DNA of 64,000 nt from Eubacteriales bacterium (lineage in GTDB: Bacteria > Bacillota > Clostridia > Oscillospirales > CAG-272), in the NCBI GenBank assembly GCA_045127455.1, contig JBGVQK010000026.1, positions 3,066-67,065 of the forward strand, read 5' to 3'. The position numbers were made by a program, and so were the translations under genes. A model generated the notes under the pieces. The model was not told the DNA's origin. It saw nothing but the letters and a program-made list of their open reading frames with translations, and did not search any database. Positions 15,117 to 31,995 of this stretch are shown one piece after another; within the stretch, counting starts at the first letter, position 1, and each line of letters begins with the position of its first letter.

Positions 15117-15192
15117 TCCAATCCTTGTGTATGCTTCGCATACGGCGTCTTGGACGCTCGCGTGGCTCGCTATTCCGTCGCTTCGCTCCTTA

Positions 15193-15376: not shown

Positions 15377-17134
15377 ATGAACAAGGAATGGAATTTGGAT
15401 ATTCTCTATTCGGGCTTTGACGACCCGAAATACAACGAGGATACCGAGCTTTTAACAAAGGAAATTGAAGCACTCAACGCTCTCTCGAGCGATATTTCAA
15501 GCATTGAAGGGGGAAAGCTTGTCAGCGAATATATTGCAATAAGCGAAAAATTAAATCTTCTTGCAAGCAAGCTTGGCATTTTTGCAAACCTCAAGTACTC
15601 GGCAAACACAAAAGACTCCGAAGCGGCATCGGCGCTCGGCAGACTTATGGGTCTCTTAAGTGCAACGGCAGCACCGTCGACGAAAATCTCACAGGCTATT
15701 GCAAAGATCGGCAACCTGGATGCTATCATTGCCCAAAACCCTGCACTCAACGAATACAGATATATGCTGAACAATATTCAGCGTGACAGCAAGCATCTGC
15801 TTTCCGACAAAGAGGAGGAGCTGTTTGCCAAAATGAACATCTCGGGAGCGGGAGCCTGGAGCGATCTGCAGAGCAGTCTGACAAGCTCGGTTACCGTAAC
15901 CATCGACGGCAAGGAAATTCCTCTTTCCTCGGCGCGTAATCTTGCTTACTCGCCCGACCCCGAAACGAGAAAAAAGGCGTACGAGGCAGAGCTTGCGTGC
16001 TACGACAAAATTAAGGACTCGGTTGCATTCGCTCTCAACAGCATAAAGTTGCAGGTGCTGAACGAGTGCGAAATGAGAGGGTACGAAAGTCCTCTTGCAA
16101 AAACGCTCTACACCTCAAGAATGAAGAAGGAGACGCTTGACGCACTCCTTTCGGCAATGGAAGAATATATGCCCGTGTTCAGAAAATATCTAAAGGCAAA
16201 GGCAAAGGCGCTCGGTCACAAGGGCGCACTTCCGTGGTATGACCTCTTTGCGCCTATGGGCAAGAATGACAAGAAATACTCGGTAGAGGACGCGAGAAAC
16301 TACCTTTTGAACGTCTTCCGGAAATTTGACGTCGAGCTATACGAAATGGTCAAGTCTGCATTTGATAATGCTTGGATCGATTTCTACCCGAGAGAAGGCA
16401 AGGTTGGGGGTGCCTTTGACTGTGGCGTCCCCTCTGCAAAACAAAGCCGCGTGCTTACAAACTTTGACGGTTCATTCAGTGACGTGGTAACCTTGGCACA
16501 TGAGCTCGGCCATTCCTTCCATGATAGTCAGGTGTTCAAAAACTCAATTTTGAATCAGGATTATTCTATGCCCGTTGCCGAAACGGCATCCACCTTTAAC
16601 GAGGTTCTCGTAATGTCAACGGCAATCAAGGAAGCCGTCGACAAGGATGAAAAGATCGCCCTGATTGAGAGCGAGCTTATGGATGCATGTCAAATCATCT
16701 GTGATATTTACTCAAGATTCACCTTTGAGGCGAGCGTGTTCGAAAACCGCGCAGATGAATTCATGGGCGCAGACCGACTCTCTTCTTTGATGCTCGCGGC
16801 ACAAAAAAAGGCATACGGTGACGGTCTTGATGAGGACTATATGCACCAATATATGTGGCTGTGCAAGGGGCACTACTACAGCGGCGGACTCAGCTTCTAC
16901 AATTTCCCCTATGCTTTTGGCGGTCTCTTTGCAAGAGGACTGTACGCCAAGTATGAGAAGGAGGGCAGGGCATTCGTTGACACCTATAAGGAGATGCTTA
17001 GAGCAACCGCAGTTATGGATATAGAAGACTGTGCTAAAATTGCGGGCATTGACCTCACAAATAAGGAGTTCTGGTGCGAGGGACTTGAGGTTATCAAAAA
17101 AGAGATAGACGAGTTCTGCGAATTGGTTCAGTAA
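15377..17134 (+). CDS. pepF: M3B oligoendopeptidase F family metallopeptidase
   Basis: 585 aa with zinc motif HELGH (TLAHELGHSFHD). The tracked ORF 14765..17134 runs through tRNA-Pro, so the start was trimmed to the ATG at 15377 behind a GGAGG RBS. Confidence 0.9.
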   Translation: MNKEWNLDILYSGFDDPKYNEDTELLTKEIEALNALSSDISSIEGGKLVSEYIAISEKLNLLASKLGIFANLKYSANTKDSEAASALGRLMGLLSATAAPSTKISQAIAKIGNLDAIIAQNPALNEYRYMLNNIQRDSKHLLSDKEEELFAKMNISGAGAWSDLQSSLTSSVTVTIDGKEIPLSSARNLAYSPDPETRKKAYEAELACYDKIKDSVAFALNSIKLQVLNECEMRGYESPLAKTLYTSRMKKETLDALLSAMEEYMPVFRKYLKAKAKALGHKGALPWYDLFAPMGKNDKKYSVEDARNYLLNVFRKFDVELYEMVKSAFDNAWIDFYPREGKVGGAFDCGVPSAKQSRVLTNFDGSFSDVVTLAHELGHSFHDSQVFKNSILNQDYSMPVAETASTFNEVLVMSTAIKEAVDKDEKIALIESELMDACQIICDIYSRFTFEASVFENRADEFMGADRLSSLMLAAQKKAYGDGLDEDYMHQYMWLCKGHYYSGGLSFYNFPYAFGGLFARGLYAKYEKEGRAFVDTYKEMLRATAVMDIEDCAKIAGIDLTNKEFWCEGLEVIKKEIDEFCELVQ

Positions 17135-17222: not shown

Positions 17223-17801
17223 ATGATTATTGCTAAAAAATGTCTTAAGGTTTCATTGAAAACTTTGTTGATAGTTTCGGTCCTCTTTGCCTTGTTCTGC
17301 ACGTCGATGCTATCTTCTTGTTCCCAAACCGAAACATCATATAATGCATCGGATTTTGAGACAATGATTAATGAGGTTTCCGGCGCGAACAATCATTTAC
17401 CTAGTACAGAGCAATTAGGAACTTATGAATCTGTTTTTCTTAATAGCAAGAGAACCAACTATGCTTTATGGGTAATAAACGCACTTTCCTTACACGTAGA
17501 ATACAATGAGGAAAATTTCGAAAAAGAAGTTGCTCAGATCAAAGCGATTTATTCGTTTGTAAATGAAGAAAAAGAAGGATTACGTGATTATTCTGCTTTC
17601 ATTTATGGTTATGAAATTCTAATTGTTGATAAAGCTGAAAGGTTAGAGAGCGATTATTCATATTACTACCCAAAATGCTTTATGATGATTGGTATAAATA
17701 AAGAAAAACATTCTATTGTTTATATGTACCATTATGATATAGATTTGGATGAAATTAAAGATTTAGATGCTTTCGTAAAAAAGTATTACGAACTAAATTA
17801 A
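17223..17801 (+). CDS. orphan lipoprotein, AT-rich gene
   Basis: Signal peptide with lipobox MLSSC. Composition and codon choice are visibly more AT-rich than the flanks. No motif was recognised. Confidence 0.6.
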   Translation: MIIAKKCLKVSLKTLLIVSVLFALFCTSMLSSCSQTETSYNASDFETMINEVSGANNHLPSTEQLGTYESVFLNSKRTNYALWVINALSLHVEYNEENFEKEVAQIKAIYSFVNEEKEGLRDYSAFIYGYEILIVDKAERLESDYSYYYPKCFMMIGINKEKHSIVYMYHYDIDLDEIKDLDAFVKKYYELN

Positions 17802-17809: not shown

Positions 17810-17962
17810 TAAGAACAAAGCGTAACTTATGGGATAGAGCATAGACAAAGCATCAATATCCCGCAAAATTGTTCGTGGAGTCACTCGCAATCTGGTTGCA
17901 AGCTCCTTTGAGGTCACGGTTCCGCACATGGCAATAATCTGCACAATGCGCTCCCGAGCAGA
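17810..17962 (-). pseudogene. remnant of an HTH (HTH_11 / DeoR-YafY-like) regulator N-terminus
   Basis: The minus-strand frame reads SARERIVQIIAMCGTVTSKELATRLRVTPRTILRDIDALS and then stops after about 50 codons. There is no ATG at the start of the frame. Full-length relatives are several-fold longer. Confidence 0.5.
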
Positions 17963-17980
17963 AAAAAATCAAGATTTTTC

Positions 17981-18009
17981 TTGACTTGCTTTCAAATATG
18001 TGATATACT
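17981..18009 (+). promoter_or_regulatory. sigma-A promoter of the 7TM-LuxR gene
   Basis: TTGACT, 17-nt spacer, TATACT with an upstream TG. Confidence 0.65.
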
Positions 18010-18057
18010 GTAAAAAAAGTGTTTGTATTAAAAAGTATTTGAAAGGGAGGTGCGGCT

Positions 18058-19011
18058 ATGGTTATAACCTATGCTATTATGGCGGTTATCGCTACGATCT
18101 TGTTGCTTGGCTATTGCGGTCTTGTGCGCAAAAAAGAGCCATGGTTGCTCCTTTTGTACGTTTGCGTTACTGTTGTAAACGTAGGCTACTTTTTGCTTTC
18201 TATCTCCAAAACCGTCGAGTTTGCCATTTTTGCAAACGACCTTGTTTATCTTGGCAGCGTTTTTCTTTCCACCGCAATGCTTTTCACCATTGCCAAGCTG
18301 TGCGGCTTTGCGCTCAAAAAGAATGTGATAATCATATCGCTTCTTATTGACGTGGCGATGTTTGCCATTATTGCCACGTCGGGATTTTTGCCGTTGTACT
18401 ACAAAGAGGTCACTTTGGTCTTTGTTGACGGTGCGGCAAAGCTTGAAAAAGTGTACGGTATCCTTCACCCCACATATCTCTTTTATCTGCTTGCTTATTT
18501 TGCAGCAATGGTTGCGTGCATTGTGCAATCCGTACGCAAAAAAATGATAGCATCTCAAAAGTACGCCGTTTTGCTCACTGCCATTGTGTTTGGCAACATT
18601 GCAGTGTGGTTGGTTGAAAAATTCATCCCTTGGAATTTTGAATTTCTTTCAGTCTCCTATCTGTTCAGCGAAATTGTTTTGCTTGGACTTTATTGGATGA
18701 TGCAAGACTACATCCGCGCAGATCTTGTTCCCAAGCCTTCACCTGCAGAGGTTCGTGCCGCGGCAATCGACGTTGCCACAATGCCAATGGAAGAAAAGAT
18801 ATTAAAGGTGCTCTCCTTCCTCAAGCCCGGCGAAATGCTGACGGCAAGAGAGCGAGAAATACTCGAATTGGTCCTGCAAAACAAAAAGAGAAAAGAGATC
18901 GCCGAGGCACTTTGCCTCTCGGAAAACACCATTAAGACCTACACCCGAACGCTATACGGCAAGGTTGGTGTCGGCTCACGCGAGGAGCTTTACGCATTAC
19001 TCATTAAATAA
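18058..19011 (+). CDS. membrane-tethered LuxR/FixJ-family transcription regulator (7 TM helices plus a C-terminal HTH)
   Basis: There are seven hydrophobic helices in residues 1-225. The C-terminal LTAREREILELVLQNKKRKEIAEALCLSENTIKTYTRTLYGKVGVGSREEL is a GerE/LuxR-type HTH. No receiver or kinase motif is present. Confidence 0.8.
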   Translation: MVITYAIMAVIATILLLGYCGLVRKKEPWLLLLYVCVTVVNVGYFLLSISKTVEFAIFANDLVYLGSVFLSTAMLFTIAKLCGFALKKNVIIISLLIDVAMFAIIATSGFLPLYYKEVTLVFVDGAAKLEKVYGILHPTYLFYLLAYFAAMVACIVQSVRKKMIASQKYAVLLTAIVFGNIAVWLVEKFIPWNFEFLSVSYLFSEIVLLGLYWMMQDYIRADLVPKPSPAEVRAAAIDVATMPMEEKILKVLSFLKPGEMLTAREREILELVLQNKKRKEIAEALCLSENTIKTYTRTLYGKVGVGSREELYALLIK

Positions 19012-19017
19012 ACGTCC

Positions 19018-19060
19018 AAAAGGGCGGCAGAGCAATCTGCCGCCCTTTTTGCGTTTTTTG
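19018..19060 (+). terminator. intrinsic terminator after the regulator gene
   Basis: aaagggcggcag-agcaat-ctgccgcccttt followed by a T-run. Confidence 0.85.
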
Positions 19061-19065
19061 AGGCA

Positions 19066-19116
19066 TTTTCACCCTTTTTTCACCCCTTTTTCCATTATTT
19101 TCACCCCAAAGGGGTG
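19066..19116 (+). promoter_or_regulatory. operator-like array: three TTTTCACCC(C) direct repeats, the last forming the palindrome CACCCC-AAA-GGGGTG
   Basis: The repeats start at 19066, 19077 and 19098, a spacing of 11 and 21 nt. A perfect 15-bp palindrome occupies 19102-19116. Confidence 0.55.
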
Positions 19117-19137
19117 TACCAAAGGCGTTTTTATCTA

Positions 19138-19146
19138 TGATAAAAT
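19138..19146 (+). promoter_or_regulatory. extended -10 element (TGaTAAAAT) with no good -35
   Basis: The hexamer 17 nt upstream is ACCAAA, a 2/6 match to TTGACA. This suggests an activator-dependent promoter for the 19201-28909 operon. Confidence 0.45.
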
Positions 19147-19200
19147 GTACGTGTGATAGAATCGACAACTATCAAAAAAAAGAAAATGGAGGTGGTGAAT

Positions 19201-19641
19201 ATGACCCGCAAGCGAATTCTGTTTGACGAATTTGAGTTTCCACGGGTGAGCGGACTTGAATATCTGCTTGACGAAGGAAAGAGCGTTACAAATTACCTGT
19301 TTGTAAGCGACCGTCACGACGGCTTTTCGATGTACTTTGAAAACGGCTTCCCAATATTCAAGGTGCCCGAAAGCGGGGAACGCTCTTACTGCTTGTTCGA
19401 AATGAAGCGCCCTGATCGGATCATCAAATTCTTCTGCCCCGAAAAACACAAAAATTTAAGCCACGTTGTGTGGTACTTCTACGTAGAGCTCTTTGACGAG
19501 CGGGGAGTGGTACACAAGCTACCGGGGCAGGTAAGGGTGCGACGAAGGGAACCTCTTTTGCGTACTCTCGGAACTGAAAAACCGAAATTCCTCGAAATAC
19601 TTGAGCAGGTAACCCTAAACAAGCTACCCGTTGCAACTTGA
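19201..19641 (+). CDS. small soluble protein of unknown function, coupled to the giant surface-protein gene
   Basis: 146 aa from the ATG behind a GGAGGTGG RBS. It has no signal peptide and no recognised motif. Its stop lies 31 nt before the next start. Confidence 0.55.
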   Translation: MTRKRILFDEFEFPRVSGLEYLLDEGKSVTNYLFVSDRHDGFSMYFENGFPIFKVPESGERSYCLFEMKRPDRIIKFFCPEKHKNLSHVVWYFYVELFDERGVVHKLPGQVRVRRREPLLRTLGTEKPKFLEILEQVTLNKLPVAT

Positions 19642-19672
19642 CGTCTTTTTGAGAACGAAAGGAGAATTCAAA

Positions 19673-22600
19673 ATGAAAAAAACAAGAAGATTTTTGCAAA
19701 TCATCTCCGTCATGCTGCTTTGCATGGCAATGATCGCAGGTGTTATGACGATTTCCGCTTCGGCAGATAGCGTTGTCACCTCGGTTGTAGTCAACGGAGA
19801 GACCTTGAACGAAGAAAAGCCATACTTGATCAATAAGGATGGCGTGTACGTTGCCGATGATGGCGAGCTGCTTGCTTCCTATTCTTGGGTAGCGCAGTTT
19901 AATGCCGCCGAGGGCGTGCTCGTGCTCAACAATTATAACGGTGGCGCGATTTCCACCACCGCCACGGGCGATCTCACCATCAAGCTGATGGGCGAGAACA
20001 CCATTAAGCATGATGCCATTGGTATTCAAATGGCGCAAGGCGGAAATTTGACCATTACCGCCGATGCGGCGGCAACGCTGGATATTCAAAGCATCCCCTC
20101 TACGTCTCATGCCGATGAGGCGGACCACTATGTGGGAATTGACAACAACTTTGAAAACGGCTATGCGACAACTGAAAAATCAGGCGATAGTGTTACCATT
20201 CAGGGATATGCCGCCGTTTCGATCAGCTCTACCAAAACCTATAAAAGTGGTAGTGTCAACGGCATTGGCGCATACGGAAGCGTTATGGTTTTGGGAAATG
20301 CAAGCTTGAATATTACCGAAACCAACGCCTACACCAGTCTCGCAAGGGGCATTTATTCCCTTGGGGGCGCAATTGTTATCAACACCACGGGCGACGTAAA
20401 TATTGCGGTTTGCGGTGAGGCGAGCTATAACGTTGGCGAAAACGTGTTCCGTGCCGCAAGTGGAGCCGTTCTTGGTAGAGTGGGTAAGATGACTCTCGAT
20501 TGGACTTACCCCGAGTTTTATGAAGAATCCGAGGTTGAACTTGATGCCGAGCTGAGCAGTTATGTGATCGGCACGATCCCCGAGGATGACACCAGCGCGA
20601 CTTATGGGTACAAATTCCCGATCACCGTTACAGGCGGTGTTGCAAAAATGGGGGATGATGTTGTTGAAGTTGCCGCAAAGGGTGAAACTGTCACCGTAGT
20701 GGCAGATGAACCCGAAGCAGGTCAGGGCTTCTACCAATGGAGCATCCTCAATGAGGCAGCAATTACCTTTGTCGACGAAAAAGCGGCAACCACAACCTTT
20801 GAAATGATTGCCGGTAGCGTTGAGCTGGAAGCGCTCTTTACACCTGCTTATACGATTACCGCCAACAATGCTACCGCAAGTGCAGGCAGTGCGGTATCGG
20901 GCAGTGTTGTTACCGTTACTGCAGATGCTCCCCAAAAGGGCTATCAGTTTGCGGGCTGGACGGTTCAATCCGGTGGAGTCGTGCTCTCCGACCCTGCAAG
21001 CTCTACAACCTCTTTTGTGGTGGGAGATGCCGCTGTTGAGATTACCGCAACCTACATGGCAACTCCATATTTCATTACCGTCAATGGCGGTGAGGCAAGC
21101 ATAGATGATGCACCTGTTAGCGAAGCGAGCATTGCAGATACCGTTACGCTTGTAGCTGATACTCCCCCCGCAGGGAAGGCGTTTAAAGAGTGGGTGATCG
21201 TATCGGGTGAGGGAACTATTACCGATCCTACGGCAACTACCACAACGCTTACAGGCGTTTTTGGCGATATTGAGATCGAAGCAACCTACGAGGATGCTAT
21301 CTATACAATTACCGTTACCGATGGCACAGCAAACGTTGAGGGCGCAAAGATGGGCGCTGAGATCACCATTACCGCGGCTGAAGCGGCAAAGGGTTATCAG
21401 TTTGCAGGATGGACGGTCGTATCGGGCGGCGTTACGCTTGCAAACCCTGCAAACGCAACCACAACCTTTACGGTTGTCAGTGCAAACGTAGAGGTCAAAG
21501 CAAACTATGCCCCCATCGAATACACGATCGAGGTTACCAACGGTCAAGCAAAGATCGATGATACCCCCGTTACCAAAGCAACTATCATCGATACCGTTAC
21601 TCTTGTGGCAAACACTCCTGCCGCAGGCAAGGTATTTAAGGAGTGGGTCATTGTATCGGGTGAGGGAACTCTTGCCAATGCAACAGATGCTACAACAACC
21701 TTGACAGGTCTATTTGGCAATCTTATGGTTCAGGCAACCTACGAGGATGCCACCTACACCATTACCGTAACAGGCGGTACGGCAAGTGCCCAGACTGCAA
21801 AAATGGGTGACGAGATCACCATCACCGCAGAGGCGATCGCGGGCAAGACCTTTACGTCTTGGACACTTTCCAGCGGCGGTGTAACGCTCGATAGCGCAAC
21901 CTCTGCTACCACCACCTTTGTAGTTGGCACCGAGAACGTTGAACTTGTTGCAAACTACACCTTTACCGATTACAGCGTTTCCATTAAGGATGGAAAGGGA
22001 ACTGTCAACTATATTGATAACGGAATTACCGATGCAAATATCGGGGATTCGATCTATATCGTTGCAGACGATCCCGCATCCGGCTACGCGTTCATTCGTT
22101 GGGACGTGCTCTCCGGTGAGATCGAATTGGAGGATCCCACCTCATACTACACCATCTTCACGATGACCGCAGGCAACGTAGAGCTTGAGGCTGTATATGC
22201 CGAGATCGTGGTATTGGATAAATTGGAATTTACGGTCACGCCTCCTGCAGTAGGCGCACATCCCACGTTTGAGCTCGTTTCCAAGGATCCTGCAAAATAC
22301 GGAAGTGAGTACGTTAGCATTTCTTTGAACGATTCTCCTTATACAGAGCTTGGCGCTGAGGATACGTATATGCTTGGTCACTCGTATCGCCTGCAATTCC
22401 AACTCGTTCTTGCAAACGGTTATGAGATCGATGGAAACACAAAGGTATACGTCAACGGAGAAGAGACGAGCAGAAGTCTCCCGTTGTGGTTCTACTACTT
22501 TGAATTTCCCGTTTCGATCACCGTGATCAACGGTAAGGCGTATGAAGATAGCGCCCGTACCGTAGAGATCACCGAGGGCTTGAGCCAATACGTTTATCTC

Positions 22601-25600
22601 AAGGCAGACGAGGTTCCCGAAGGAAAGGTCTTTTTGGGATGGATCGTAAAATCCGGTGACGTAACGATCTATTCGCCGAACTACAAGGACTCCGCGTACT
22701 TCTATTTGAAAAATGAACCCGTAACTGTTGAAGCAGTGATTGTAGATGTACTCGAGGAAGTTGTTCTTACTGTAACAACTCCCAAGCCCGGCGATCTTGC
22801 AACCATTGAGATCACCTCTGCCGATCCCTCCAAATACACGGCGGAGCTGATTGATTTTTACATTAACAAGTCCCCCTACACACACTTGAATCCCACCGAT
22901 CCCTTTGAGTATGGCAGATCTTACACTATGCAGTTCGAGATCATTGCCGCCGAAGGCTATGCCGTTGCAGAAGGTACCGTTGTTACCGTAAACGGTGATG
23001 AGACCTACGGCTATGGCGGAGATATTACGGGATATGAAAAGCAAAGATGGAGCTTTGAGCTTCCCGTTTCCATTACCGTTATAAACGGCAAGGCGTATAC
23101 CTCAAGCGAATACACCGAAGAGATCGTTGAATTTTACAGTCCCGGAAGCCTCTTCATCAAAGCAGACGAAGCACCCGAGGGTAAAGAATTTTTGATGTGG
23201 AAGATCACCATGGACGGTGACATTACCTATAACCATTACAACCCAACAAACATTTGGGTAGGTAGTGCCTCGGTTGTCGTTTGTGAGGCGATCTACGCCA
23301 TTCCGATCAACACGATCGAGTTGACGATGCCCAAAATAACGGTTGGTAGCACGCCCATCACCACCGTTACCACCGAAAGCGATCTTTACACGGTAGAGGT
23401 TGAAGCGTGGTACAACGTCGGGGATACGCGCGTCCAAATGCTGCCCACCGATACTTACGTAGCAGATGCATTCTATGAGTGCAGATTCATCATTACTCCT
23501 AAGGATGGGTACTGTGTAGGCAATCACGCCAAGATCAGCGTAAACGGCAAGACGGGAAACACCGGCGGTTACCATGTTGGAACCGCAATAATCGGTGCTT
23601 ACGTGCAGCTGTATGATCTGATCCCTGTTGGTATTGAGGTCACAGGCGGCAAGCTCTATCTTGACGGCGTAGAGACCAACGAGACCGAGTTCCTCCCCGG
23701 TACCACCCTGACGTTGGTTGCAGATAAGAGCCTTTATCCCGAAGGTGAAACCTTTACAAGGTGGTATTTCCCGTCGTACTCTTCTACTTTGATCAAATAT
23801 ACCGACGAAAGAGCCGAAAGCTTTACCTTTACCATTTGCGAACCGCCTGCCAGAGACCGCATGGTTACTATGGAAGCACAGTATGCGGCACTCACCTCTG
23901 TTTATTACCTCGACACCTACGTACCGCACCCCGTTGTTGGCGGAACCCCATCCTATGATGCAGGTGTTAACAAATGGCAGAACTACTTTGCTGAGGTGCT
24001 TGCTTGGTATGAGGGCGAAACTCTTTTGGAGACAGATCACGTATTTGAGGCAGGCAAGACCTACACCGTAAAAATTCGTCTCGAGCCCGCCCCCGGCTAT
24101 TACTTCCCGCCGTTGGATTTCGAGTATCTGCGTGCCGATAACACCTTTAGCGGCAACAGTGCGGACGGAATTTTCCTTGAGCGTGGCGAAAATGGCGAAT
24201 ACATCATCTTTGAATCCTCCATTACGGCAAAACAATTCCAAGAGAATATATCCGTAACCGTTACAACACCCGTTGCAGGTATGCTTCCCAGCGACGTTGT
24301 AGAAAAGGACGGCGACGTCAATTGCGACGTAGAGTTTGGCGGTTGGCTATACTGGGACGAAGAAAAGGGAATGTACGTTGCATTGGCAGAGGGCGAACGC
24401 TTTGAGGTTGGCAAGACCTACCGCGTTGACGTCGAGTTCGCATCCAACGATACCTACTTTATTGATTACAACAATATCACAGCTCTTATCAACGGCAAAA
24501 AACCCGTCCGCTTTAGCAGCGGAAACAAGGATGGCGGACTTTGCACTGTTGGATACTATTTGGAGTTTGCCGTAGAGGCAGATGGTTCAACCTTTGACCT
24601 CGAAGTAGAAAACGGCAGCGCAACCGTTGACGAAGCCCCCGTTACCGAGGTCGGCGGCGGTATCGTAGTCACCATCACCGCAGACGCTCCCGAGGACGGC
24701 AAGGCGTTCAAGGGTTGGGTCGTTGTCAGCGGCGAAAGTGTTGTATTCGTCGATGCAACTGCATCCACTACCACCTTTGTAATGCCCGCAGGCAACGTTA
24801 GAATTCAAGCGGTTTACCGCAATATTCCTTATACCATTACCGTAGTGGACGGTGAAGCAGACCTGAGTGAGGCAGGCAGCGGTGAAACGGTTACCGTTAC
24901 GGCAGGCGAGGCTCCCGACGGCAAGTATTTTGCAGGCTGGGAATGCACCGCAGGCGGCGTAACCTTTACAGATGAAACTGCAAAGACTACCACGTTTGTT
25001 ATGACAGGTGAAGCTGTTACCGTCAAGGCGGTTTATGCCGACAAGATCGTTTTGGAAGAAATGGAATTCACCATTCCCGCTCCCGCATACGGAGAGAATC
25101 CTTCCTACGTGATCACCTCCAAGGATCCCGAAAAGTATACGGCAACGGTTGCATATTGGTATCGCAATTCTGACAGCGAAGATCTGACTCCCGAAAGCAC
25201 ATTTGCATACGGAGAGGGATATACCATTCGCTTTACCATTGCAGCATCCGAAAAATACACGTTTAACTATAACACCACCATCCTTCTCAATGGTGAGGAA
25301 TGTGGTTCCTATGGTTTAACAGGTCGTCAATACACGCTGTTCCAAATTCCCGTTCCCATTACAATTGAGGGTGGCACGGCATTTGATACAAGCAGCAATC
25401 CGATTGACGCACAAGTCAACGGCTTCTACGTAAAGCTCAAAGTGGGCGAGATCCCCGCAGGCAAGAGCTTCTCGCATTGGGAGGTTGTCAGCGGCAACGT
25501 TACTCTGTATTCGCCTACCTCTCTCGATGGTGCATACTTCTACATTGGCAAAGAGCCAGTTGAAATTCGTGCGATCTATCACACGCATACCTACGATGAT

Positions 25601-28600
25601 ACCTATAAATCCAATGCTACACACCATTGGCATGAATGCACCGATCCCGCTTGCACCGACAAAGAGGGCAGCATCAAGGATAAGGTAGAGCACACATGGG
25701 ATAACACCTGTGACACCGCATGTAACGATTGCGGACATACTCGCGATATCACACATACCTATAGCGATTATATTCCTCAAAAGGATGCAAACTGTATCGA
25801 AACGGGTATGAAGGCGCATTACGAGTGCTCGGTATGCCATGCACTCTTTGACACAAGCTTCAACGCTACCACCGAGCAAGCGTTGACCATTGCTATCAAC
25901 GATTCTCACAGCTTTGGCGATTGGGCATCCAATGGCGACGGCACGCACACAAGAGTTTGCTCGCGCAACAACGAGCACACCGAAACCGACGATTGCGAGG
26001 GCGGTACCGCAACTTGTGTTGCAAAAGCAATTTGTTCCACTTGCGAAGCTGCTTACGGCAACCTTGGCGCACACAGCTATGGCGTCAAGATCGAGGAGGT
26101 TCCCACCACCCACACCAAGGATACTCTTACACAGGGTGTTAAGGCACACTTCCAATGCGGCCTTTGCGCAAAGTATTTCGACGAGGGCAAAAACCCCGTT
26201 GATTACGAAGATCTTATTATCCCCGCGCCCACTCACGTCTACGGTGAATGGATCAAGGATAACGACAACCACTGGAAGACTTGCGAATGCGGCAAGAAGG
26301 ATCAGCTTGGCGAGCACGTTTACGACGATGAAGCCGATATGATCTGTAACACTTGTAGCTACGATCGCACCGCTCCGCACACCCATGGTGATGGCGAAAA
26401 GGTAAACGGTCAGGCAGCAACCTGCACCACCGACGGTTGGAAAGACTACTATCAATGCTCCTGCGGTCACATTTATACCGATAAGGATTGCACAAACGAA
26501 ATTACCAGCCTTGTTGACTGGAAGGCAGGCGAGGGCAAGATCGCGGCAGCACATACGCTGGGCGACCCCATCGCGGCAGTAGAGGCTAACTGTACCGAAA
26601 AGGGTATGCAGCAGCACCGCAAGTGCTCTGTTTGCGGCACTCTGTTCGATATGGACGGCAACGTAAGAAGCGCCGAGGAGCTTTCCATTGCAACCAACGG
26701 CAAACACGCTTACGGTGCTTGGGCATCCAACGGCGATGGCACGCACACAAGAATCTGCTCGCACAACAACGAGCACAAGGAGACCGTTGCTTGCGCAGGC
26801 GGCACCGCTACCTGCACCGAAGCGGCAGTTTGCTCCACTTGTAACACCGCTTATGGCGAGGCCAACGGACACGATTATAGCGAAGCAACCTGTACCAAGA
26901 AGGCGACCTGCTCGGTTTGTGGCGACGAAACGGGCGAGCTGAAGCCTCACGATTACAGCGAAGCGACCTGCACAAAGAAAGCTACCTGCTCGGTTTGCGG
27001 TGGCGAAACGGGCGACCTCAAGCCTCACGATTATAGCGAAGCAACCTGCACAAAGAAGGCTACCTGCTCCGTATGTGGCGCAGAAACAGGCGAATTGAAG
27101 CCTCACGATTACAGCGAAGCAACCTGTGCAAAGAAAGCAACCTGCTCGGTATGCGGTGCCGAAACCGGTGATTTTGCCGCACACAACTACGGCGATAAGA
27201 TCGAGGCAGTTCCCGCAACGCACACCAAGGATGAATTGCTGGCAGGTATGCAAGCGCACTACCATTGCGCAGTTTGCGACAAATACTTTGATGCAAATAA
27301 AAATCCCGTAGAGCAAGCAGCTCTAATCATTCCCGCACCCACGCACGTATGGGGCACTTGGGTCAAGAATGACAGCACCCACTGGAAGGCTTGCGAATGT
27401 GGCAAAAAGGATCAAGAGGGCGCACACGTTTACGATAACGTAACCGATATGCTCTGTAACACCTGTAACTACGACCGCACCGCTCCGCACACTCACGGAG
27501 ATGGAGAAAAGGTCAACGGTCAAGCAGCTACCTGCACAACCGACGGTTGGAAGGATTACTATCAATGCTCCTGCGGTCACATCTACACCGAAAAGGAATG
27601 CACAAATGAAATTACAAACCTCGTTGCTTGGAAGGCAGGCGAGGGCAGAATCGCAGCAGCACACACACTTGGCGATCTGATTGCCGCAACCGAGCCCAAC
27701 TGCACGGTCGAAGGTAAAAAGGCACACTACGAGTGCTCCGTTTGCTCCACTCTCTTTGACGAGGAAAAGAACGTTAAAACAGAGAGTGAGCTGACCATCC
27801 CCACCAACGGCACACACGCCTTTGGCGCTTGGGCATCCAACGGTGACGGTACGCACACAAGAGTTTGCTCGCATAACAATGCTCACAAGGAAAGTGAAGA
27901 TTGCGCAGGCGGCACCGCTACCTGCACCGAGGCAGCGGTTTGCTCCACCTGTAACACGGCTTACGGCAAGGCTAATGGACACGACTACAGTGAAGCGACC
28001 TGCACCAAGAAAGCTACTTGCTCCGTATGTGGTGACGAGACCGGCGAATTGAAAGCGCACGATTACAGCGAGGCGACTTGCACTAAGAAGGCAACCTGCT
28101 CCGTATGTGGAGATGAAACCGGTGAATTGAAGGCACACGATTACAGTGAAGCAACTTGCACAAAGAAAGCTACTTGCTCTGTATGCGGTGACGAGACCGG
28201 TGAATTGAAGGCACACGATTACAGTGAAGCAACCTGTATCGCAAAGGCAAAATGCTCTGTATGTCAGCAAGAAACCGGTGACTTCGCAGATCACAAGTAT
28301 AGCGAAGCAACCTGCACAGCAAAAGCAAAATGCTCTGTATGTCAACAAGAGACCGGCGATTTCGCAGATCACAAGTATAGCGACGCAACCTGCACGGCAA
28401 AGGCGAAATGCTCCGTATGTCAACAAGAGACCGGTGATCTTGCAGATCACAAGTATAGCGAAGCAACCTGTACGGCAAAGGCAAAATGCTCCGTATGTCA
28501 ACAAGAGACCGGCGATTTCGCAGATCACGTTGACGCAAATGAGGACGGAAAGTGCGACGTTTGCCAGCATCAAATGAGCACAATTCCCGAACAGACAACT

Positions 28601-28909
28601 CCCGAGCCCGAACAGACCACTCCCGAGCCTGAGGGAACGACCCCCGAGCCCGAGAACCCCGAAAACCCCGACGATCAACCCGATGATCCCGAAGAGCCCA
28701 AGACGGGACTTTCCGGCGGAGCCGTTGCAGGCATCGTTATTGCTTCTACCGCAGTTGCGGGAGCCGGTGGCTTTGCAGTTTGGTGGTTCGCAATTCAAAA
28801 GCATACCGTAGCAGAGCTTGGAAGCGCCTGCAAAACGGTTGGTGGAAAGATTGGCGGTTTCTTCAAGGGCGTCTTTGAAAAAATCAAAAATCTGTTCTCC
28901 AAAAAATAA
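19673..28909 (+). CDS. giant (3078-aa) cell-surface protein with repeat modules, a Cys/His-rich stalk and a C-terminal membrane anchor
   Basis: The signal peptide is MKKTRRFLQIISVMLLCMAMIAGVMTISASA. There are 13 modules with G-x-x-F-x-x-W-x-V-x-S-G (Listeria-Bacteroides / InlB-B-repeat-like) and 6 interleaved modules of about 95 aa. A Cys/His-rich region of about 1000 aa spans 25580-28560. The C-terminus has a P/E/T linker, EPKTG, a TM helix and a cationic tail. Confidence 0.9.
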   Translation: MKKTRRFLQIISVMLLCMAMIAGVMTISASADSVVTSVVVNGETLNEEKPYLINKDGVYVADDGELLASYSWVAQFNAAEGVLVLNNYNGGAISTTATGDLTIKLMGENTIKHDAIGIQMAQGGNLTITADAAATLDIQSIPSTSHADEADHYVGIDNNFENGYATTEKSGDSVTIQGYAAVSISSTKTYKSGSVNGIGAYGSVMVLGNASLNITETNAYTSLARGIYSLGGAIVINTTGDVNIAVCGEASYNVGENVFRAASGAVLGRVGKMTLDWTYPEFYEESEVELDAELSSYVIGTIPEDDTSATYGYKFPITVTGGVAKMGDDVVEVAAKGETVTVVADEPEAGQGFYQWSILNEAAITFVDEKAATTTFEMIAGSVELEALFTPAYTITANNATASAGSAVSGSVVTVTADAPQKGYQFAGWTVQSGGVVLSDPASSTTSFVVGDAAVEITATYMATPYFITVNGGEASIDDAPVSEASIADTVTLVADTPPAGKAFKEWVIVSGEGTITDPTATTTTLTGVFGDIEIEATYEDAIYTITVTDGTANVEGAKMGAEITITAAEAAKGYQFAGWTVVSGGVTLANPANATTTFTVVSANVEVKANYAPIEYTIEVTNGQAKIDDTPVTKATIIDTVTLVANTPAAGKVFKEWVIVSGEGTLANATDATTTLTGLFGNLMVQATYEDATYTITVTGGTASAQTAKMGDEITITAEAIAGKTFTSWTLSSGGVTLDSATSATTTFVVGTENVELVANYTFTDYSVSIKDGKGTVNYIDNGITDANIGDSIYIVADDPASGYAFIRWDVLSGEIELEDPTSYYTIFTMTAGNVELEAVYAEIVVLDKLEFTVTPPAVGAHPTFELVSKDPAKYGSEYVSISLNDSPYTELGAEDTYMLGHSYRLQFQLVLANGYEIDGNTKVYVNGEETSRSLPLWFYYFEFPVSITVINGKAYEDSARTVEITEGLSQYVYLKADEVPEGKVFLGWIVKSGDVTIYSPNYKDSAYFYLKNEPVTVEAVIVDVLEEVVLTVTTPKPGDLATIEITSADPSKYTAELIDFYINKSPYTHLNPTDPFEYGRSYTMQFEIIAAEGYAVAEGTVVTVNGDETYGYGGDITGYEKQRWSFELPVSITVINGKAYTSSEYTEEIVEFYSPGSLFIKADEAPEGKEFLMWKITMDGDITYNHYNPTNIWVGSASVVVCEAIYAIPINTIELTMPKITVGSTPITTVTTESDLYTVEVEAWYNVGDTRVQMLPTDTYVADAFYECRFIITPKDGYCVGNHAKISVNGKTGNTGGYHVGTAIIGAYVQLYDLIPVGIEVTGGKLYLDGVETNETEFLPGTTLTLVADKSLYPEGETFTRWYFPSYSSTLIKYTDERAESFTFTICEPPARDRMVTMEAQYAALTSVYYLDTYVPHPVVGGTPSYDAGVNKWQNYFAEVLAWYEGETLLETDHVFEAGKTYTVKIRLEPAPGYYFPPLDFEYLRADNTFSGNSADGIFLERGENGEYIIFESSITAKQFQENISVTVTTPVAGMLPSDVVEKDGDVNCDVEFGGWLYWDEEKGMYVALAEGERFEVGKTYRVDVEFASNDTYFIDYNNITALINGKKPVRFSSGNKDGGLCTVGYYLEFAVEADGSTFDLEVENGSATVDEAPVTEVGGGIVVTITADAPEDGKAFKGWVVVSGESVVFVDATASTTTFVMPAGNVRIQAVYRNIPYTITVVDGEADLSEAGSGETVTVTAGEAPDGKYFAGWECTAGGVTFTDETAKTTTFVMTGEAVTVKAVYADKIVLEEMEFTIPAPAYGENPSYVITSKDPEKYTATVAYWYRNSDSEDLTPESTFAYGEGYTIRFTIAASEKYTFNYNTTILLNGEECGSYGLTGRQYTLFQIPVPITIEGGTAFDTSSNPIDAQVNGFYVKLKVGEIPAGKSFSHWEVVSGNVTLYSPTSLDGAYFYIGKEPVEIRAIYHTHTYDDTYKSNATHHWHECTDPACTDKEGSIKDKVEHTWDNTCDTACNDCGHTRDITHTYSDYIPQKDANCIETGMKAHYECSVCHALFDTSFNATTEQALTIAINDSHSFGDWASNGDGTHTRVCSRNNEHTETDDCEGGTATCVAKAICSTCEAAYGNLGAHSYGVKIEEVPTTHTKDTLTQGVKAHFQCGLCAKYFDEGKNPVDYEDLIIPAPTHVYGEWIKDNDNHWKTCECGKKDQLGEHVYDDEADMICNTCSYDRTAPHTHGDGEKVNGQAATCTTDGWKDYYQCSCGHIYTDKDCTNEITSLVDWKAGEGKIAAAHTLGDPIAAVEANCTEKGMQQHRKCSVCGTLFDMDGNVRSAEELSIATNGKHAYGAWASNGDGTHTRICSHNNEHKETVACAGGTATCTEAAVCSTCNTAYGEANGHDYSEATCTKKATCSVCGDETGELKPHDYSEATCTKKATCSVCGGETGDLKPHDYSEATCTKKATCSVCGAETGELKPHDYSEATCAKKATCSVCGAETGDFAAHNYGDKIEAVPATHTKDELLAGMQAHYHCAVCDKYFDANKNPVEQAALIIPAPTHVWGTWVKNDSTHWKACECGKKDQEGAHVYDNVTDMLCNTCNYDRTAPHTHGDGEKVNGQAATCTTDGWKDYYQCSCGHIYTEKECTNEITNLVAWKAGEGRIAAAHTLGDLIAATEPNCTVEGKKAHYECSVCSTLFDEEKNVKTESELTIPTNGTHAFGAWASNGDGTHTRVCSHNNAHKESEDCAGGTATCTEAAVCSTCNTAYGKANGHDYSEATCTKKATCSVCGDETGELKAHDYSEATCTKKATCSVCGDETGELKAHDYSEATCTKKATCSVCGDETGELKAHDYSEATCIAKAKCSVCQQETGDFADHKYSEATCTAKAKCSVCQQETGDFADHKYSDATCTAKAKCSVCQQETGDLADHKYSEATCTAKAKCSVCQQETGDFADHVDANEDGKCDVCQHQMSTIPEQTTPEPEQTTPEPEGTTPEPENPENPDDQPDDPEEPKTGLSGGAVAGIVIASTAVAGAGGFAVWWFAIQKHTVAELGSACKTVGGKIGGFFKGVFEKIKNLFSKK
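26072..28291 (+). repeat. tandem in-frame segmental duplication of about 1110 nt inside the giant gene
   Basis: The block AHSYGVKIEEVPTTHTKD... (from 26072) recurs as AHNYGDKIEAVPATHTKD... (from 27182). The two copies stay colinear for 798 nt up to the start of each 78-nt array. Confidence 0.85.
26870..27181 (+). repeat. 4 tandem 78-nt (26-aa) coding repeats, HDYSEATCTKKATCSVCG-ETG-LKP
   Basis: Copies start at 26870, 26948, 27026 and 27104. Copies 1 and 2, compared codon by codon, differ mostly at synonymous sites. Confidence 0.95.
27980..28525 (+). repeat. 7 tandem 78-nt (26-aa) coding repeats (3 TKKATC-type plus 4 AKAKC-type)
   Basis: HDYSEATCTKKATCSVCGDETGELKA occurs 3 times, followed by H(D/K)YS(E/D)ATC(I/T)AKAKCSVCQQETGD(F/L)AD 4 times. 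Confidence 0.95.
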
Positions 28910-28966
28910 TTCCAATTAAAAAAAGCAACGGGCGCAAAAGCGCCCGTTGCCCAAATAATGTGGCAA

Positions 28967-29004
28967 GGCGGCTGCTTCAAGCTTTTGGGGCAGCCGCTTT
29001 TGTT
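28967..29004 (+). terminator. intrinsic terminator after the giant gene
   Basis: ggcggctg ... cagccgc followed by ttttgtt. An additional hairpin without a T-tract lies at 28925-28950. Confidence 0.6.
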
Positions 29005-29014
29005 ATAAATTCTA

Positions 29015-29043
29015 TTGACAAAACGGCCGAATGCCTGTATAAT
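29015..29043 (+). promoter_or_regulatory. sigma-A promoter of the hydrolase-membrane fusion gene
   Basis: TTGACA, 17-nt spacer, TATAAT. Confidence 0.75.
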
Positions 29044-29093
29044 AAAAATATGCAGGTATATTTTGCATATATTTTTAGAAAGGACGAAAAACA

Positions 29094-30890
29094 ATGAAAC
29101 GCAAAGCAAAACTTTTCTTGATCTTTTCGATTTTAGTTTGTCTTCTCAGTTCCATAGGCGCAAGTCTTTTCCAAACCAACTTTGGGCAGGTCACATATCA
29201 CGATATGACCTTTGTTACCGAAAGCGGACACGAATTGGACGCACTCTTGCTCGTTCCCAAAACCGCAACCAAAGAAAACAAAGCCCCCGCAATTGTTGTA
29301 AGCCACGGCTGGTACAACAACCGCGAAATGCAGGATCTTAACTACGTTGAATACGCTCGCAGAGGCTACGTAGTGCTTGCCATCAGTATGTACGGCCACG
29401 GCGACTCCGAGGTCATCGAATCCAACACCTGGTGGAATGACGAAAACAACGCCAACGGTCTTTACGATGGCGTAAAATACGTTGCCGAGCTGCCTTTTGT
29501 TGATGCAAGCAAAATCGGTGTTACAGGGCATTCCAACGGTGCTCTCGCTTGCAGAGAAGCCGTATTGCAGGACAAAGAAGGGCTGATCTCTGCTGCTTTG
29601 CTTGTTTCCAACGATGCGGTGTACTATGACGAGGACGGCAACTTCTACAACCAATTCGGCTCTCGCGATGCCGCAATCGTTGCTTGCCAATACGATGAAT
29701 TTTTCCACCGCGTTGACGGCAATCCCCCAAGAGAGTACATCAATCAGGTAACCGCGCAGTCCTTCTTGCACTTCGGCGTTGATCCCGCAGGGCTTGATAA
29801 GCGCGTTGCAGGTGAATTCTATACAGACGAAATTGACGGTGAGGTTGCCATTCGTGCAATCTACAACCCCGCAATCACACACCCGTGGGCGCATTTTTCA
29901 ACTGACGTAGTTGCATTTAGCGTCAACTTCTTTGACCACGTGTTTGGCGAGCCCGTTTCCCGTGATAGATACGATCAGATCTGGCAGATCAAGGCAGCCT
30001 TTAATGCACTTGGCGTTGTTGGCTTCTTTATGTTCCTGGCAGCCCTGACGTTTGCTCTGCTCGAAACGCCTTACTTTGGCGTTCTCAAGGCAAGCGAGCC
30101 CGTTCAGCCTTGGCCCGCTCTCGAGGGACGCGCCAAAAAGGTTGCCCGTCGCAGAGGCTTCTGGAGCGTGATATGCAGCATTCTTTTCTACTTTATCGGC
30201 TTCATCATCGGCTTTGTCGGCTCTATGTTCATCGGTATTTGGAATCAAGGCGGTTCCTTTGCCATTGGTGCGTGGTCGTTGCTCTGCGGTCTGTTCACCA
30301 TGGGCACGATGCGCAAGATCAAAAAGCGCACCTATATTGATCCTTGGGAAAGAGGTGTGAAGGTCGGCAAGCCCAAAATGCGTCGTTCTATCCTTCTTGC
30401 ACTCACGGTCGTATGCGCGGCATTCTTGCTCGTTTTCCTTTCGGATTACCTCTTCCTCACCGATTACAGACTTTGGTGCTTTGCAACCATCAGAGCGTTT
30501 GATGCAAAGCATCTTGTCAAGGTTCTTTGCTTCCTGCCTTTCTGGCTCGTTTACTACATTGCAACCAGTGTATCGGCAAACTGCTATGGCTATGCTATGA
30601 AGGGCAAGCGTCGCGGCACACCCGTTTTGCGCCAGATGTTCCTTGTTTTCATTGGCCCCGCTTTGATGATCGCAATCCAGTATGCCAAGTTCTTTATTAC
30701 CGGCAAGATGGTGCTTGACCCCATCACCGGCATTATGGGTATTTGGCTTTTCCCGATCGTTGTGATCCTTCCTATATCCGTTCTCATCAGCAATGCCATT
30801 TACAAGCGCACAAAGAACCCCTACATTGGCGGCATCATTATGGCGATCGTAGCGTGCATTCTGACTGTAACGAACACGCTCACCGGCTAA
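29094..30890 (+). CDS. fusion of an extracytoplasmic alpha/beta serine hydrolase with a C-terminal polytopic membrane domain
   Basis: An N-terminal signal-anchor is followed by a hydrolase domain of about 300 aa, with HGW oxyanion-like and GHSNG nucleophile motifs. About 7 hydrophobic helices follow (residues about 300-598). Confidence 0.7.
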   Translation: MKRKAKLFLIFSILVCLLSSIGASLFQTNFGQVTYHDMTFVTESGHELDALLLVPKTATKENKAPAIVVSHGWYNNREMQDLNYVEYARRGYVVLAISMYGHGDSEVIESNTWWNDENNANGLYDGVKYVAELPFVDASKIGVTGHSNGALACREAVLQDKEGLISAALLVSNDAVYYDEDGNFYNQFGSRDAAIVACQYDEFFHRVDGNPPREYINQVTAQSFLHFGVDPAGLDKRVAGEFYTDEIDGEVAIRAIYNPAITHPWAHFSTDVVAFSVNFFDHVFGEPVSRDRYDQIWQIKAAFNALGVVGFFMFLAALTFALLETPYFGVLKASEPVQPWPALEGRAKKVARRRGFWSVICSILFYFIGFIIGFVGSMFIGIWNQGGSFAIGAWSLLCGLFTMGTMRKIKKRTYIDPWERGVKVGKPKMRRSILLALTVVCAAFLLVFLSDYLFLTDYRLWCFATIRAFDAKHLVKVLCFLPFWLVYYIATSVSANCYGYAMKGKRRGTPVLRQMFLVFIGPALMIAIQYAKFFITGKMVLDPITGIMGIWLFPIVVILPISVLISNAIYKRTKNPYIGGIIMAIVACILTVTNTLTG

Positions 30891-30898: not shown

Positions 30899-30927
30899 CA
30901 AGCGGCAACCGTTTCGGTTGCCGCTTT
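30899..30927. terminator. bidirectional intrinsic terminator
   Basis: aagcggcaacc-gtttc-ggttgccgctt lies between convergent genes. Confidence 0.8.
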
Positions 30928-30931: not shown

Positions 30932-31903
30932 TTAAAACAAAGCTGCCACAAGAGCACAGCCAACCGTTTGCAATAGCTTTGATGCAAAATAGGGGCGCAA
31001 GGAAAGGTCCTTACCGTCGCAAAGCGAGAGCATTTGGCAATGAATAGAGATGCCAGACCATCCCACCGCGGCACCCGTCACAACGGCGGCAAGCCGACGG
31101 TCTGCAAGCTCTGCGGACGCATTCACACCGCCCGAAAGCTCCAAAAGGGAAGAGAGAATGGCGTGCATCTCTTGACTTGCCGCAAAGCGACCGAGCACAA
31201 GCTCGACAGCTCCCGTCAGGGTAGAAAAGAAGACCACGTATGCGCAGATCAGCAAGGTGTTGGCCGTTGCATTTCGAATCGCCGACGGAAAGGCGCCTGC
31301 CTCAAAGTGCATCTTCGTTGGTGGTGAAAGGGGTGCTTGCGCAGAGCCTTTCTCTTTGCGTTTTTGCAGGACGTATAGCAAAAAGCCGCACAAAAGCGCC
31401 ATCAAAACCGATGTGACGTATAAAAGCGTGCCAAATCTTGTGTCGTTCCAAAGCGTTGCACCAACGGTGCTTATGAGAAATGCCGAAGAGGGAATAGAGG
31501 AGCAAGCGATCACGCGCTCACATTCGGTCTTTTCCATCGCTCCCTTTTCGTATGCCAATATCGCGCACCGCGCCCCTACGGGAAATCCGCATAAGAGCCC
31601 CAGCACGACCGCGCAGCACCCTGCACGCGAAAGTCCCAGCAGCTTGCCCAAGGGGCGGCAAAGGGGAGAGAAAAACCATTCCCCCGCGCCGCTTGCCACA
31701 AGCAGCTCGGAGAGCACCATAAAGGGGAAAAGGGAAGGCACGACCGCGCGGGCGCAGGTAGAGAGCCCTTGGCGCATACAATCCCTCGCAACGTCTGCAC
31801 GCCGAAGCAGAAGAGCAAGACTGAAAACAAGTAAAAAGGCAAGGTAGAAGAGCCCGAGGCGAGGGCGCTCTGCCTTTTTTATGTGTGCTAACTGTCTTGT
31901 CAT
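30932..31903 (-). CDS. ylbJ: sporulation integral membrane protein YlbJ-like (nucleoside-recognition domain)
   Basis: The polytopic protein begins MTRQLAHIKK..GLSTCARAVVPSLFPFMVLSELLV. A GGGAGGGG RBS precedes the ATG at 31903. Confidence 0.6.
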   Translation of the reverse strand: MTRQLAHIKKAERPRLGLFYLAFLLVFSLALLLRRADVARDCMRQGLSTCARAVVPSLFPFMVLSELLVASGAGEWFFSPLCRPLGKLLGLSRAGCCAVVLGLLCGFPVGARCAILAYEKGAMEKTECERVIACSSIPSSAFLISTVGATLWNDTRFGTLLYVTSVLMALLCGFLLYVLQKRKEKGSAQAPLSPPTKMHFEAGAFPSAIRNATANTLLICAYVVFFSTLTGAVELVLGRFAASQEMHAILSSLLELSGGVNASAELADRRLAAVVTGAAVGWSGISIHCQMLSLCDGKDLSLRPYFASKLLQTVGCALVAALF

Positions 31904-31995
31904 TTTGCCCCTCCCGATTGCATAAAATGAGTTTTGATACAAGTTACGCGCGCGGGCTTTGATTTATTCCGTAGGCGAAAAGGGGGAACATAAAA

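Follow-up and report, generated by a model that had tools for sequence, protein, structure and literature searches.

Gene content of the locus

The locus described here spans positions 17981 to 30890 of a 64,000-nucleotide (nt) stretch of contig JBGVQK010000026.1 (GenBank assembly GCA_045127455.1, positions 3,066 to 67,065 of the forward strand) from an Eubacteriales bacterium of the GTDB lineage CAG-272; this whole stretch is called the window below. Four consecutive open reading frames (ORFs) lie there on the + strand, as an earlier, sequence-only reading had reported, and they encode a predicted membrane-bound regulator, a small protein, a giant secreted protein, and a hydrolase with membrane helices (Table 1). 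The stretch given in that reading begins at position 17981, which proved not to be a start codon; it is the -35 element of a promoter-like site. From the placement of promoters and terminators and from the spacing between the small and giant genes, the sequence of the window predicts three transcription units: one with the regulator gene, one that joins the small gene to the giant gene, and one with the hydrolase gene. Comparison with related loci indicates that the regulator, small, and giant genes make up a portable three-gene cassette in uncultured animal-gut Clostridia.

The regulator consists of a HisKA_7TM sensor domain (52.6 bits against a Pfam cut-off of 28.6), a linker of about 45 amino acids (aa), and a GerE/LuxR helix-turn-helix (HTH) domain (PF00196, 53.3 bits against a cut-off of 23.5, residues 260 to 313) with the recognition helix LSENTIKTYTRTLY. 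Neither a kinase nor a receiver domain was found with Pfam or NCBIfam; Response_reg was unmatched, and the NCBIfam matches covered the HTH alone and fell far under their cut-offs. The protein belongs with the LuxR/GerE-family HTH proteins. It lacks the N-terminal receiver with a phospho-acceptor Asp that defines a NarL/FixJ-class response regulator, and it also lacks the HisKA and HATPase_c domains of a HisKA_7TM histidine kinase, terminating with the HTH at residue 317. The earlier description of a kinase-less, receiver-less 7TM-LuxR regulator was thereby borne out. A hydropathy scan gave 6 to 7 transmembrane (TM) segments, and on the basis of hydropathy and the positive-inside pattern a predicted topology of seven helices, with the N terminus outside and the HTH inside, fits the sequence. 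The best-conserved stretch of the sensor, YYK..L.F.DG.AKLEKVYG.LHP (window positions 18379 to 18471, regulator residues ∼108 to 138), is kept in distant clades as well. It falls in a predicted extracytoplasmic loop and is a candidate site of signal contact.

Conservation of a three-gene cassette

A scan of one genome per species yielded 42 loci, all in metagenome-assembled genomes (MAGs) from ruminant and other animal guts labeled Eubacteriales, Clostridia, Oscillospiraceae, "Bacilli" (two), and Candidatus Avispirillum; together with metagenome contigs, these made 48 distinct loci. In 39 of the 40 loci with at least 1.3 kb of upstream DNA, a regulator homolog of at least 250 aa ended less than 450 nt (about 200 nt) 5' of the small gene. 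On the other side, a large ORF, of ∼840 to 3,031 aa where complete, starts 6 to 75 nt after the stop codon of the small gene in all loci with enough downstream DNA, the exceptions being L051, in which the ORF overlaps that stop by 8 nt, and the truncated locus L044, with a gap of 249 nt. The flanking genes vary by locus and include an amylase gene with an ABC transporter, MatE with pyruvate kinase, capsule genes, and tRNA-modification genes. The closest locus from another species, L012 (9688-10441), has an SPFH-family gene upstream instead and a cargo gene of 3031 aa, cargo here meaning the product encoded after the small gene.

Some copies of the cassette lie in surroundings of a particular kind. 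In L005 (1560-15383) and L062 (4756-15693) the cassette sits beside a large serine recombinase with Resolvase, Recombinase, and Zn_ribbon_recom domains. An Mn_catalase (cotJC-like) gene next to cotJB is split in two in L005, with the recombinase and the cassette between its halves, and one Mn_catalase fragment each precedes the contig end in L006 and L062, the recombinase of L006 being off the contig. From this arrangement, the cassette near split cotJC looks like cargo of a skin-like element of ∼13 kb that interrupts a sporulation gene (with MatE in addition in L062). A recombinase homolog was sought in the window and none was found, and the window copy therefore shows no sign of residing in an excisable element.

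The hydrolase as a neighboring gene

The fourth gene encodes an N-terminal hydrophobic segment, an alpha/beta-hydrolase domain, and then about 7 to 8 TM segments by hydropathy, in agreement with the earlier description of a hydrolase fused to about seven TM helices. The domain is of the Peptidase_S15/AXE1/DLH type, with several Pfam matches above cut-offs at residues 29 to 181, and it contains the GxSxG nucleophile elbow expected of alpha/beta-hydrolases as GHSNG. The family is large, with more than 1,300 clusters at 70 to 88% identity, and its members are annotated as either acetylxylan esterase or dienelactone hydrolase. In other species the gene adjoins rhamnose-catabolism or sugar-uptake genes with no cassette nearby.

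These data bear on the proposal of a single surface-display system made up of all four genes, the hydrolase-membrane fusion among them. In the window the four are same-strand neighbors, and the layout is repeated in the same-species contigs L067 and L068 and only there. A hydrolase homolog was found in none of the related loci, including the 23 that extend at least 2 kb past a complete cargo gene; the window gene has its own consensus promoter and terminators, and its family occurs elsewhere in unrelated contexts. We consider a four-gene system very improbable, and because of these same three observations the hydrolase is best read as an unrelated neighbor and not part of the cassette. Of the conserved co-occurrence expected for all four genes, the part concerning the regulator, small, and giant genes was upheld, and the part concerning the hydrolase was not.

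The control region

The spacer between the regulator gene and the small gene has a layout common to nearly all related loci. Its order is a terminator, direct repeats TTTCACCC-N-TTTCACCCC that are 11 bp apart, a palindrome, and an extended -10 element; an equivalent of the terminator, a hairpin followed by a T-run, is visible at that position in related loci. The palindrome, TCACCCC-N3-GGGGTG, lies ∼12 bp past the direct repeats, and its spacer is 3 nt in the window and 2 to 5 nt across loci. The consensus of the extended -10 across loci is TGnTA(A/T)AAT, and in most of them the palindrome center is 32 nt 5' of the -10 hexamer. Automatic assignment of the -10 gave 27 nt in some loci, most of which read TATGATAAAAT, that is, the TGnTAAAAT element. 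A strong ribosome-binding site, GGAGGTGGTGA, follows ∼55 nt past the extended -10. The right arm of the palindrome takes the place of a -35 element, the region being TACCGA-like with about 2 of 6 matches to the consensus. In 774 kb of related loci plus the window, 55 of 56 such palindromes stand immediately 5' of a small-protein gene. TCACCC boxes were absent near the regulator's own promoter, and there is therefore no sign of autoregulation. The window has no second box cluster. A hairpin in the 5' leader, GATAG...CTATC, was also considered and was dropped, as its z score of -0.12 was no better than that of shuffled sequence.

Dimers of NarL/GerE-family HTH proteins recognize inverted TACYYMT-like heptamers, and the lux box of LuxR is centered at -42.5. 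By analogy with LuxR at the lux box, the spacing between palindrome and -10 would be the geometry of a class-II activator.

Box sequence and regulator recognition helix change jointly across four clades. Regulators with the helix LSENT[IV]KTYTR (extended form LSENT[IV]KTYTRTLY) go with the box TCACCCC, and three loci with the helix VSESSVKLYTR (VSESSVKLYTRTLY) have the box TTACCCC and the palindrome TTACCCC...GGGGTAA. The helix LSENTVKMHTT (LSENTVKMHTTSLF) of a more distant clade is accompanied by ACACCC repeats, and the helix VTEHTVKKHT (VTEHTVKKHTGNIF) of the most distant clade by GTAGCCC repeats and the palindrome GTAGCCC...GGGCTAC. The covariation supports recognition of the boxes by the regulator without proving it, because the events are few and tied to phylogeny. 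Overall, the predicted link from regulator to boxes to operon is well supported by these comparisons. One MAG, SIG644, has two cassettes, L025 and L026, with TTACCCC and TCACCCC boxes and recognition helices that differ to match, which suggests paralogous systems insulated from each other.

The same elements could be read as those of a repressor. The regulator would then sit on the palindrome over the -35 position until released by a signal, and the extended -10 promoter would be intrinsically active. The right arm of the palindrome does overlap the -35 position and could equally be a repressor site, the TGnTAAAAT element is a good one that would be able to work without a -35, and L012, in which most of the regulator gene is deleted and the operon is intact, would then be a case of constitutive expression. 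However, two more boxes lie upstream at roughly -65 and -76, and the -10 and the start site are left uncovered, as is usual at activator-dependent promoters. The -35 region is, moreover, conserved in a non-consensus form, and the transmembrane LuxR proteins that have been characterized are activators (PMC9734109). We regard repression as unlikely.

The small protein

The small protein has 146 aa, a pI of 8.9, and no TM segment by hydropathy, and its gene stops exactly 31 nt 5' of the giant gene; the ORF described earlier as encoding a cytoplasmic protein was confirmed in these respects. The window protein had no match in Pfam, NCBIfam, PADLOC, or PHROGs, and the idea of a defense system was dropped since the last two were empty. 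When 37 members were scanned one by one against Pfam, nine families each matched one member weakly (best E value, 0.00044) and none was shared. A profile of the family gave only E values above 1 against PDB, and a scan of viral contigs for the protein gave no matches. Homologs form 389 clusters, nearly all of 143 to 146 aa, and where the source names them the name is "hypothetical protein." When 1.84 billion representative proteins were searched exhaustively with a profile, only 78 relatives came up, among them full-length ones at 21 to 30% identity, and a repeat search using a diverse alignment (A3) gave close relatives only and added nothing. An AlphaFold2 model from a shallow alignment of close homologs (A1) had a pLDDT (the model's own confidence score) of 50 and was discarded. 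The model from the diverse alignment, with a pLDDT of 87.8 and a pTM (its overall-fold counterpart) of 0.81, has nine beta strands and a C-terminal helix. Foldseek searches of PDB and BFVD found no neighbor of the model with an E value below 0.001, the best weak matches by template-modeling score being Mog1 (0.43), PsbP (0.38), and a phage lipoprotein (0.52). As far as the searched libraries show, the small protein represents a new family.

Across loci the small protein is 55 to 84% identical while the cargo varies. Relatives at ∼25% identity again follow a HisKA_7TM-GerE gene, a terminator, repeated boxes, and an extended -10. In one distant clade the gene after the small one encodes a cytoplasmic DUF4428 zinc-ribbon protein of ∼300 aa without a signal peptide, and in an intermediate clade it again encodes a signal-peptide protein. 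The DUF4428 proteins, found at L054 683-1249 and L065 1392-2288, have a second Cys cluster at the C terminus. Because the pair persists in front of the DUF4428 protein, regulator and small protein are the invariant unit and the cargo is exchangeable. The functional core would then be the regulator and the small protein, not surface display as such. An exchangeable cargo argues against a cargo-specific chaperone and favors a role for the small protein tied to the regulator or the transcription complex.

Two other roles were weighed. The small protein might be a dedicated cytoplasmic chaperone or targeting factor that maintains the export competence of the nascent giant protein or of its signal peptide. 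In the main clade its gene always stands immediately 5' of that for a large signal-peptide protein with a short conserved gap, and the model weakly resembles, at template-modeling scores of 0.43 to 0.52, the Mog1/PsbP-like class, to which the Eag-type chaperones, binders of hydrophobic helices, belong. None of these fold matches is significant, however, and the degree of conservation given above is kept while the modules, the anchor, and the N-terminal signal type of the cargo all vary. Distant members, furthermore, precede the DUF4428 protein, which has no signal peptide, yet they still follow the regulator. A chaperone thus seems improbable. Still less probable, in our judgment, is an RNA-polymerase-associated elongation or antitermination factor for a very long and repetitive cargo gene. 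A conserved cellular partner would account for high conservation despite variable cargo, and the small gene is the first in an operon of up to 9 kb. But the protein has no similarity to NusG/LoaP or any Pfam family, the cargo of the distant clade is only ∼300 aa long, and strict linkage to one regulator family would be left unexplained.

The giant protein and the variable cargo

The giant protein has a signal peptide, 7 Flg_new_2 repeats, and a C-terminal TM helix. Its 95 Cys and 70 His residues are concentrated at residues ∼1900 to 3000, and this Cys/His-rich last third contains 78-nt (26-aa) tandem repeats. Flg_new_2 was the sole Pfam match; SLH, CWB2, LysM, and dockerin modules were not found, and a comparison with PDB sequences gave no match. 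At the C-terminal end a Pro/Glu/Thr linker leads to one TM helix, after which the tail is not short but exceeds 35 aa. No LPXTG motif is present: the window protein reads EEPKTG before the TM helix, its close homolog in L012 reads EEPKKG, and an LPXTG-like motif is missing from further cargo proteins that are anchored in this way. The protein is thus predicted to be membrane anchored by its C-terminal helix, and anchoring to the wall is not supported. Of the earlier description as a giant, secreted, anchored, Cys/His-rich wall protein of 3078 aa, the signal peptide, the anchor, and the Cys/His content stand, and the wall, for want of a wall-sorting signal, does not. The 78-nt arrays lie at window positions 26870 to 27165 and 27979 to 28528, with the unit H-[DK]-Y-S-[ED]-A-T-C-x2-K-A-x-C-S-V-C-x2-E-T-G. 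Within the species the protein differs slightly in length, the L068 copy being called at 3051 aa against 3078 aa in the window; stop-to-stop frames are 3085 codons in L067 and 3069 codons in L068. Between samples, identity is ∼95% for the giant gene versus 97% for the hydrolase region.

Across loci the cargo differs in length, in recognizable domains, and in attachment. Anchors are a C-terminal TM helix with the motif ...GGFA.FWFVIKKK..., a type I dockerin (L009 and L053), or neither, and the N-terminal signal may be a signal peptide, a lipoprotein signal, or a signal anchor. Cys-rich units and Flg_new_2 are repeat modules in common, and single-linkage clustering joined most of the cargo proteins through such modules. 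Because these modules merge the clusters, we term the cargo mosaic and variable and not nonhomologous. At L056 (10463-20435) the small gene is followed by three consecutive same-strand genes for large secreted proteins of 1032, 1328, and 1250 aa, the last of them incomplete at the border of the locus, so that more than one cargo gene can be present in the regulated operon.

A proposed mechanism

We propose that in this portable cassette the expression of a variable surface protein is turned on by a transmembrane one-component activator that is accompanied by a small partner, a reading of the comparative sequence evidence to which we assign a probability of roughly 60%. The regulator would reside in the membrane, where its 7TM domain would sense a membrane-borne or extracellular cue; its dimers would bind the boxes and act as a class-II activator of the operon, and, being tethered, it would act on the adjacent promoter only. 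The small protein would be made only while the regulator is active, and its most likely role is that of a feedback partner, positive (co-activator) or negative (anti-activator), bound to the regulator or to the transcription complex; it is probably not a cargo-specific factor. The giant protein would cross the membrane through Sec and stay attached to the cell surface through its C-terminal helix, serving as a fast-changing, adhesin-like display protein.

Besides the overlap of the palindrome with the -35 position, three points weigh against this reading. Only the last 40 codons of the regulator gene remain in L012, yet nothing is missing from its operator, small gene, or giant gene. The locus could be a natural knock-out of the regulator, in which case the operon may not always need a regulator encoded in cis, or else an artifact of MAG assembly, the contig being faulty. 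The covariation between boxes and helices comprises few events (four clades) and is confounded with phylogeny, the small protein also differing between clades. Lastly, the proposed role of the small protein follows from its pattern of linkage, its model being without a significant fold neighbor (best template-modeling scores, 0.43 to 0.52).

We put forward more tentatively the broader proposal of a previously unrecognized two-protein signaling module, in which the HisKA_7TM-LuxR protein would work together with the ∼145-aa beta-rich protein; the latter would represent a new fold family and be the obligate feedback partner or signal relay of the membrane-tethered activator. Such a module might serve as a movable "plug-in promoter" that Clostridia attach to interchangeable cargo, giant hypervariable surface proteins included, even inside elements excised during sporulation.

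Relation to known systems

Full-text literature searches found no paper on a 7TM-LuxR protein with this small partner or this giant cargo. Transmembrane one-component regulators are widespread (census in PMC10269533), and DadR, HcdR, and CadR of Eggerthella lenta have been proven genetically to be LuxR-type activators with 10 to 12 TM segments that couple small molecules to adjacent genes (PMC9734109). The window regulator resembles them in its architecture, in which a polytopic membrane domain at the N terminus is joined directly to a LuxR/GerE HTH at the C terminus and both kinase and receiver are lacking, and in being a dedicated local regulator encoded beside its putative target, with many paralogs of divergent specificity. 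It adjoins the putative target operon, whose operator is conserved and covaries with the HTH across loci. It differs from the E. lenta proteins in having about 7 TM segments of the HisKA_7TM type by hydropathy and Pfam, outside the 10 to 12 of the DadR family; in coming from Clostridia with giant surface-protein targets, whereas the E. lenta family is found in Coriobacteriia and acts on catabolic reductases; and in having a conserved small protein that is always the first putatively regulated gene.

Other comparisons are more distant. ToxR, TcpP, and CadC are likewise membrane-tethered one-component DNA binders, often with a small co-encoded partner, such as ToxS for ToxR and TcpH for TcpP. 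These regulators, however, have an N-terminal winged helix, a single TM segment, and a periplasmic sensor in place of a C-terminal LuxR HTH and 7 TM segments, and their partners are membrane proteins, whereas the partner here is cytoplasmic and encoded in the putative target operon. TraR and TraM are a pair of LuxR-type activator and anti-activator, and a small protein encoded in the regulon of a LuxR-type activator could similarly feed back on it; TraM is small and helical, whereas the small protein here is beta rich and has no similarity to it in sequence or fold. The operator resembles those of NarL/GerE proteins in its half-site, T(C/T)ACCCC, its inverted repeat with a short spacer, and its extra direct repeats, and differs in the length of that spacer, which is 2 nt in NarL/GerE operators, and in being paired with a receiver-less, membrane-bound protein. 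In Clostridium thermocellum the sigma/anti-sigma pair SigI/RsgI, with extracellular carbohydrate-binding sensors, controls cellulosomal genes. Like the arrangement proposed for the cassette, it links a membrane sensor to large extracellular proteins, some of them dockerin bearing, but the two systems are unrelated in sequence and mechanism.

Giant, repeat-rich surface proteins are common in uncultured gut Clostridia, and for their control the cassette offers a candidate model with a defined operator, a defined regulator whose specificity determinants can be read, and an obligatory small partner from a new family. It would also extend the transmembrane LuxR class, lately recognized in Coriobacteriia, to a 7TM sensor type in Clostridia. 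The pairs of box and helix could serve as orthogonal, membrane-gated expression switches, and the small-protein gene is a handy marker for giant adhesin genes that break metagenome assemblies.

Features of the window and its flanks

The coordinates of the features are collected in Table 1.

Table 1. Genes and predicted control elements at the locus and at its borders (positions in the window)
Feature	Position	Strand	Remarks
pepF	ends 17134	+	left neighbor of the region
AT-rich lipoprotein-like orphan	17223-17801	+	
Start-less HTH gene remnant	∼17812-17970	minus	reads ...ERIVQIIAMCGTVTSKELATRLRVTPRTILRDIDAL...
Promoter-like site of regulator gene	17981-18009	+	TTGACT-17-TATACT, TG-extended
Regulator gene	18058-19011	+	317 aa
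Intrinsic terminator (predicted), ending regulator transcript	19018-19049	+	-29.1 kcal/mol, z -7.0
Two direct-repeat boxes, putative upstream operator sites	19067-19086	+	TTTCACCCT and TTTCACCCC, 11 bp apart
Putative palindromic operator	19099-19116	+	TTTCACCCC-AAA-GGGGTG; center at ∼-44 from inferred transcription start
Extended -10	19138-19146	+	TGaTAAAAT; no good -35
Small gene	19201-19641	+	146 aa; first in predicted regulated operon
Giant gene	19673-28909	+	3078 aa
Two strong hairpins 3' of giant gene	28923-29004	+	-52.8 kcal/mol, z -6.6
Hydrolase promoter	29015-29043	+	perfect sigma-70 consensus, TTGACA-17-TATAAT
Hydrolase gene	29094-30890	+	598 aa
Bidirectional terminator past hydrolase gene	30900-30926		
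ylbJ	30932-31942	minus	right neighbor of the region

The second of the two hairpins 3' of the giant gene (∼28968-28997) is followed by TTTTGTT, ending at ∼29004, and is the likely end of the small/giant operon. At the left edge, where the G+C content is 35 to 37%, both the AT-rich orphan and the truncated HTH gene of the sequence-only reading were found. The remnant is an N-terminal fragment of a DeoR/HTH_11-like gene and overlaps the promoter region of the regulator. No homolog of the lipoprotein-like orphan occurs in any of the related loci. The left junction looks remodeled, and we regard the orphan and the remnant, like the hydrolase, as bystanders to the cassette.

Rfam detected no RNA family within 17981 to 30890. 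Elsewhere in the window there are a THF riboswitch (40465-40577, +) and an L10 leader (57183-57332, -), as well as two tRNA genes on the + strand at 5788-5861 and 14823-14895. Because the second tRNA gene falls inside the mechanically called ORF 14765-17134, pepF must start further downstream, near MNKEWNL.

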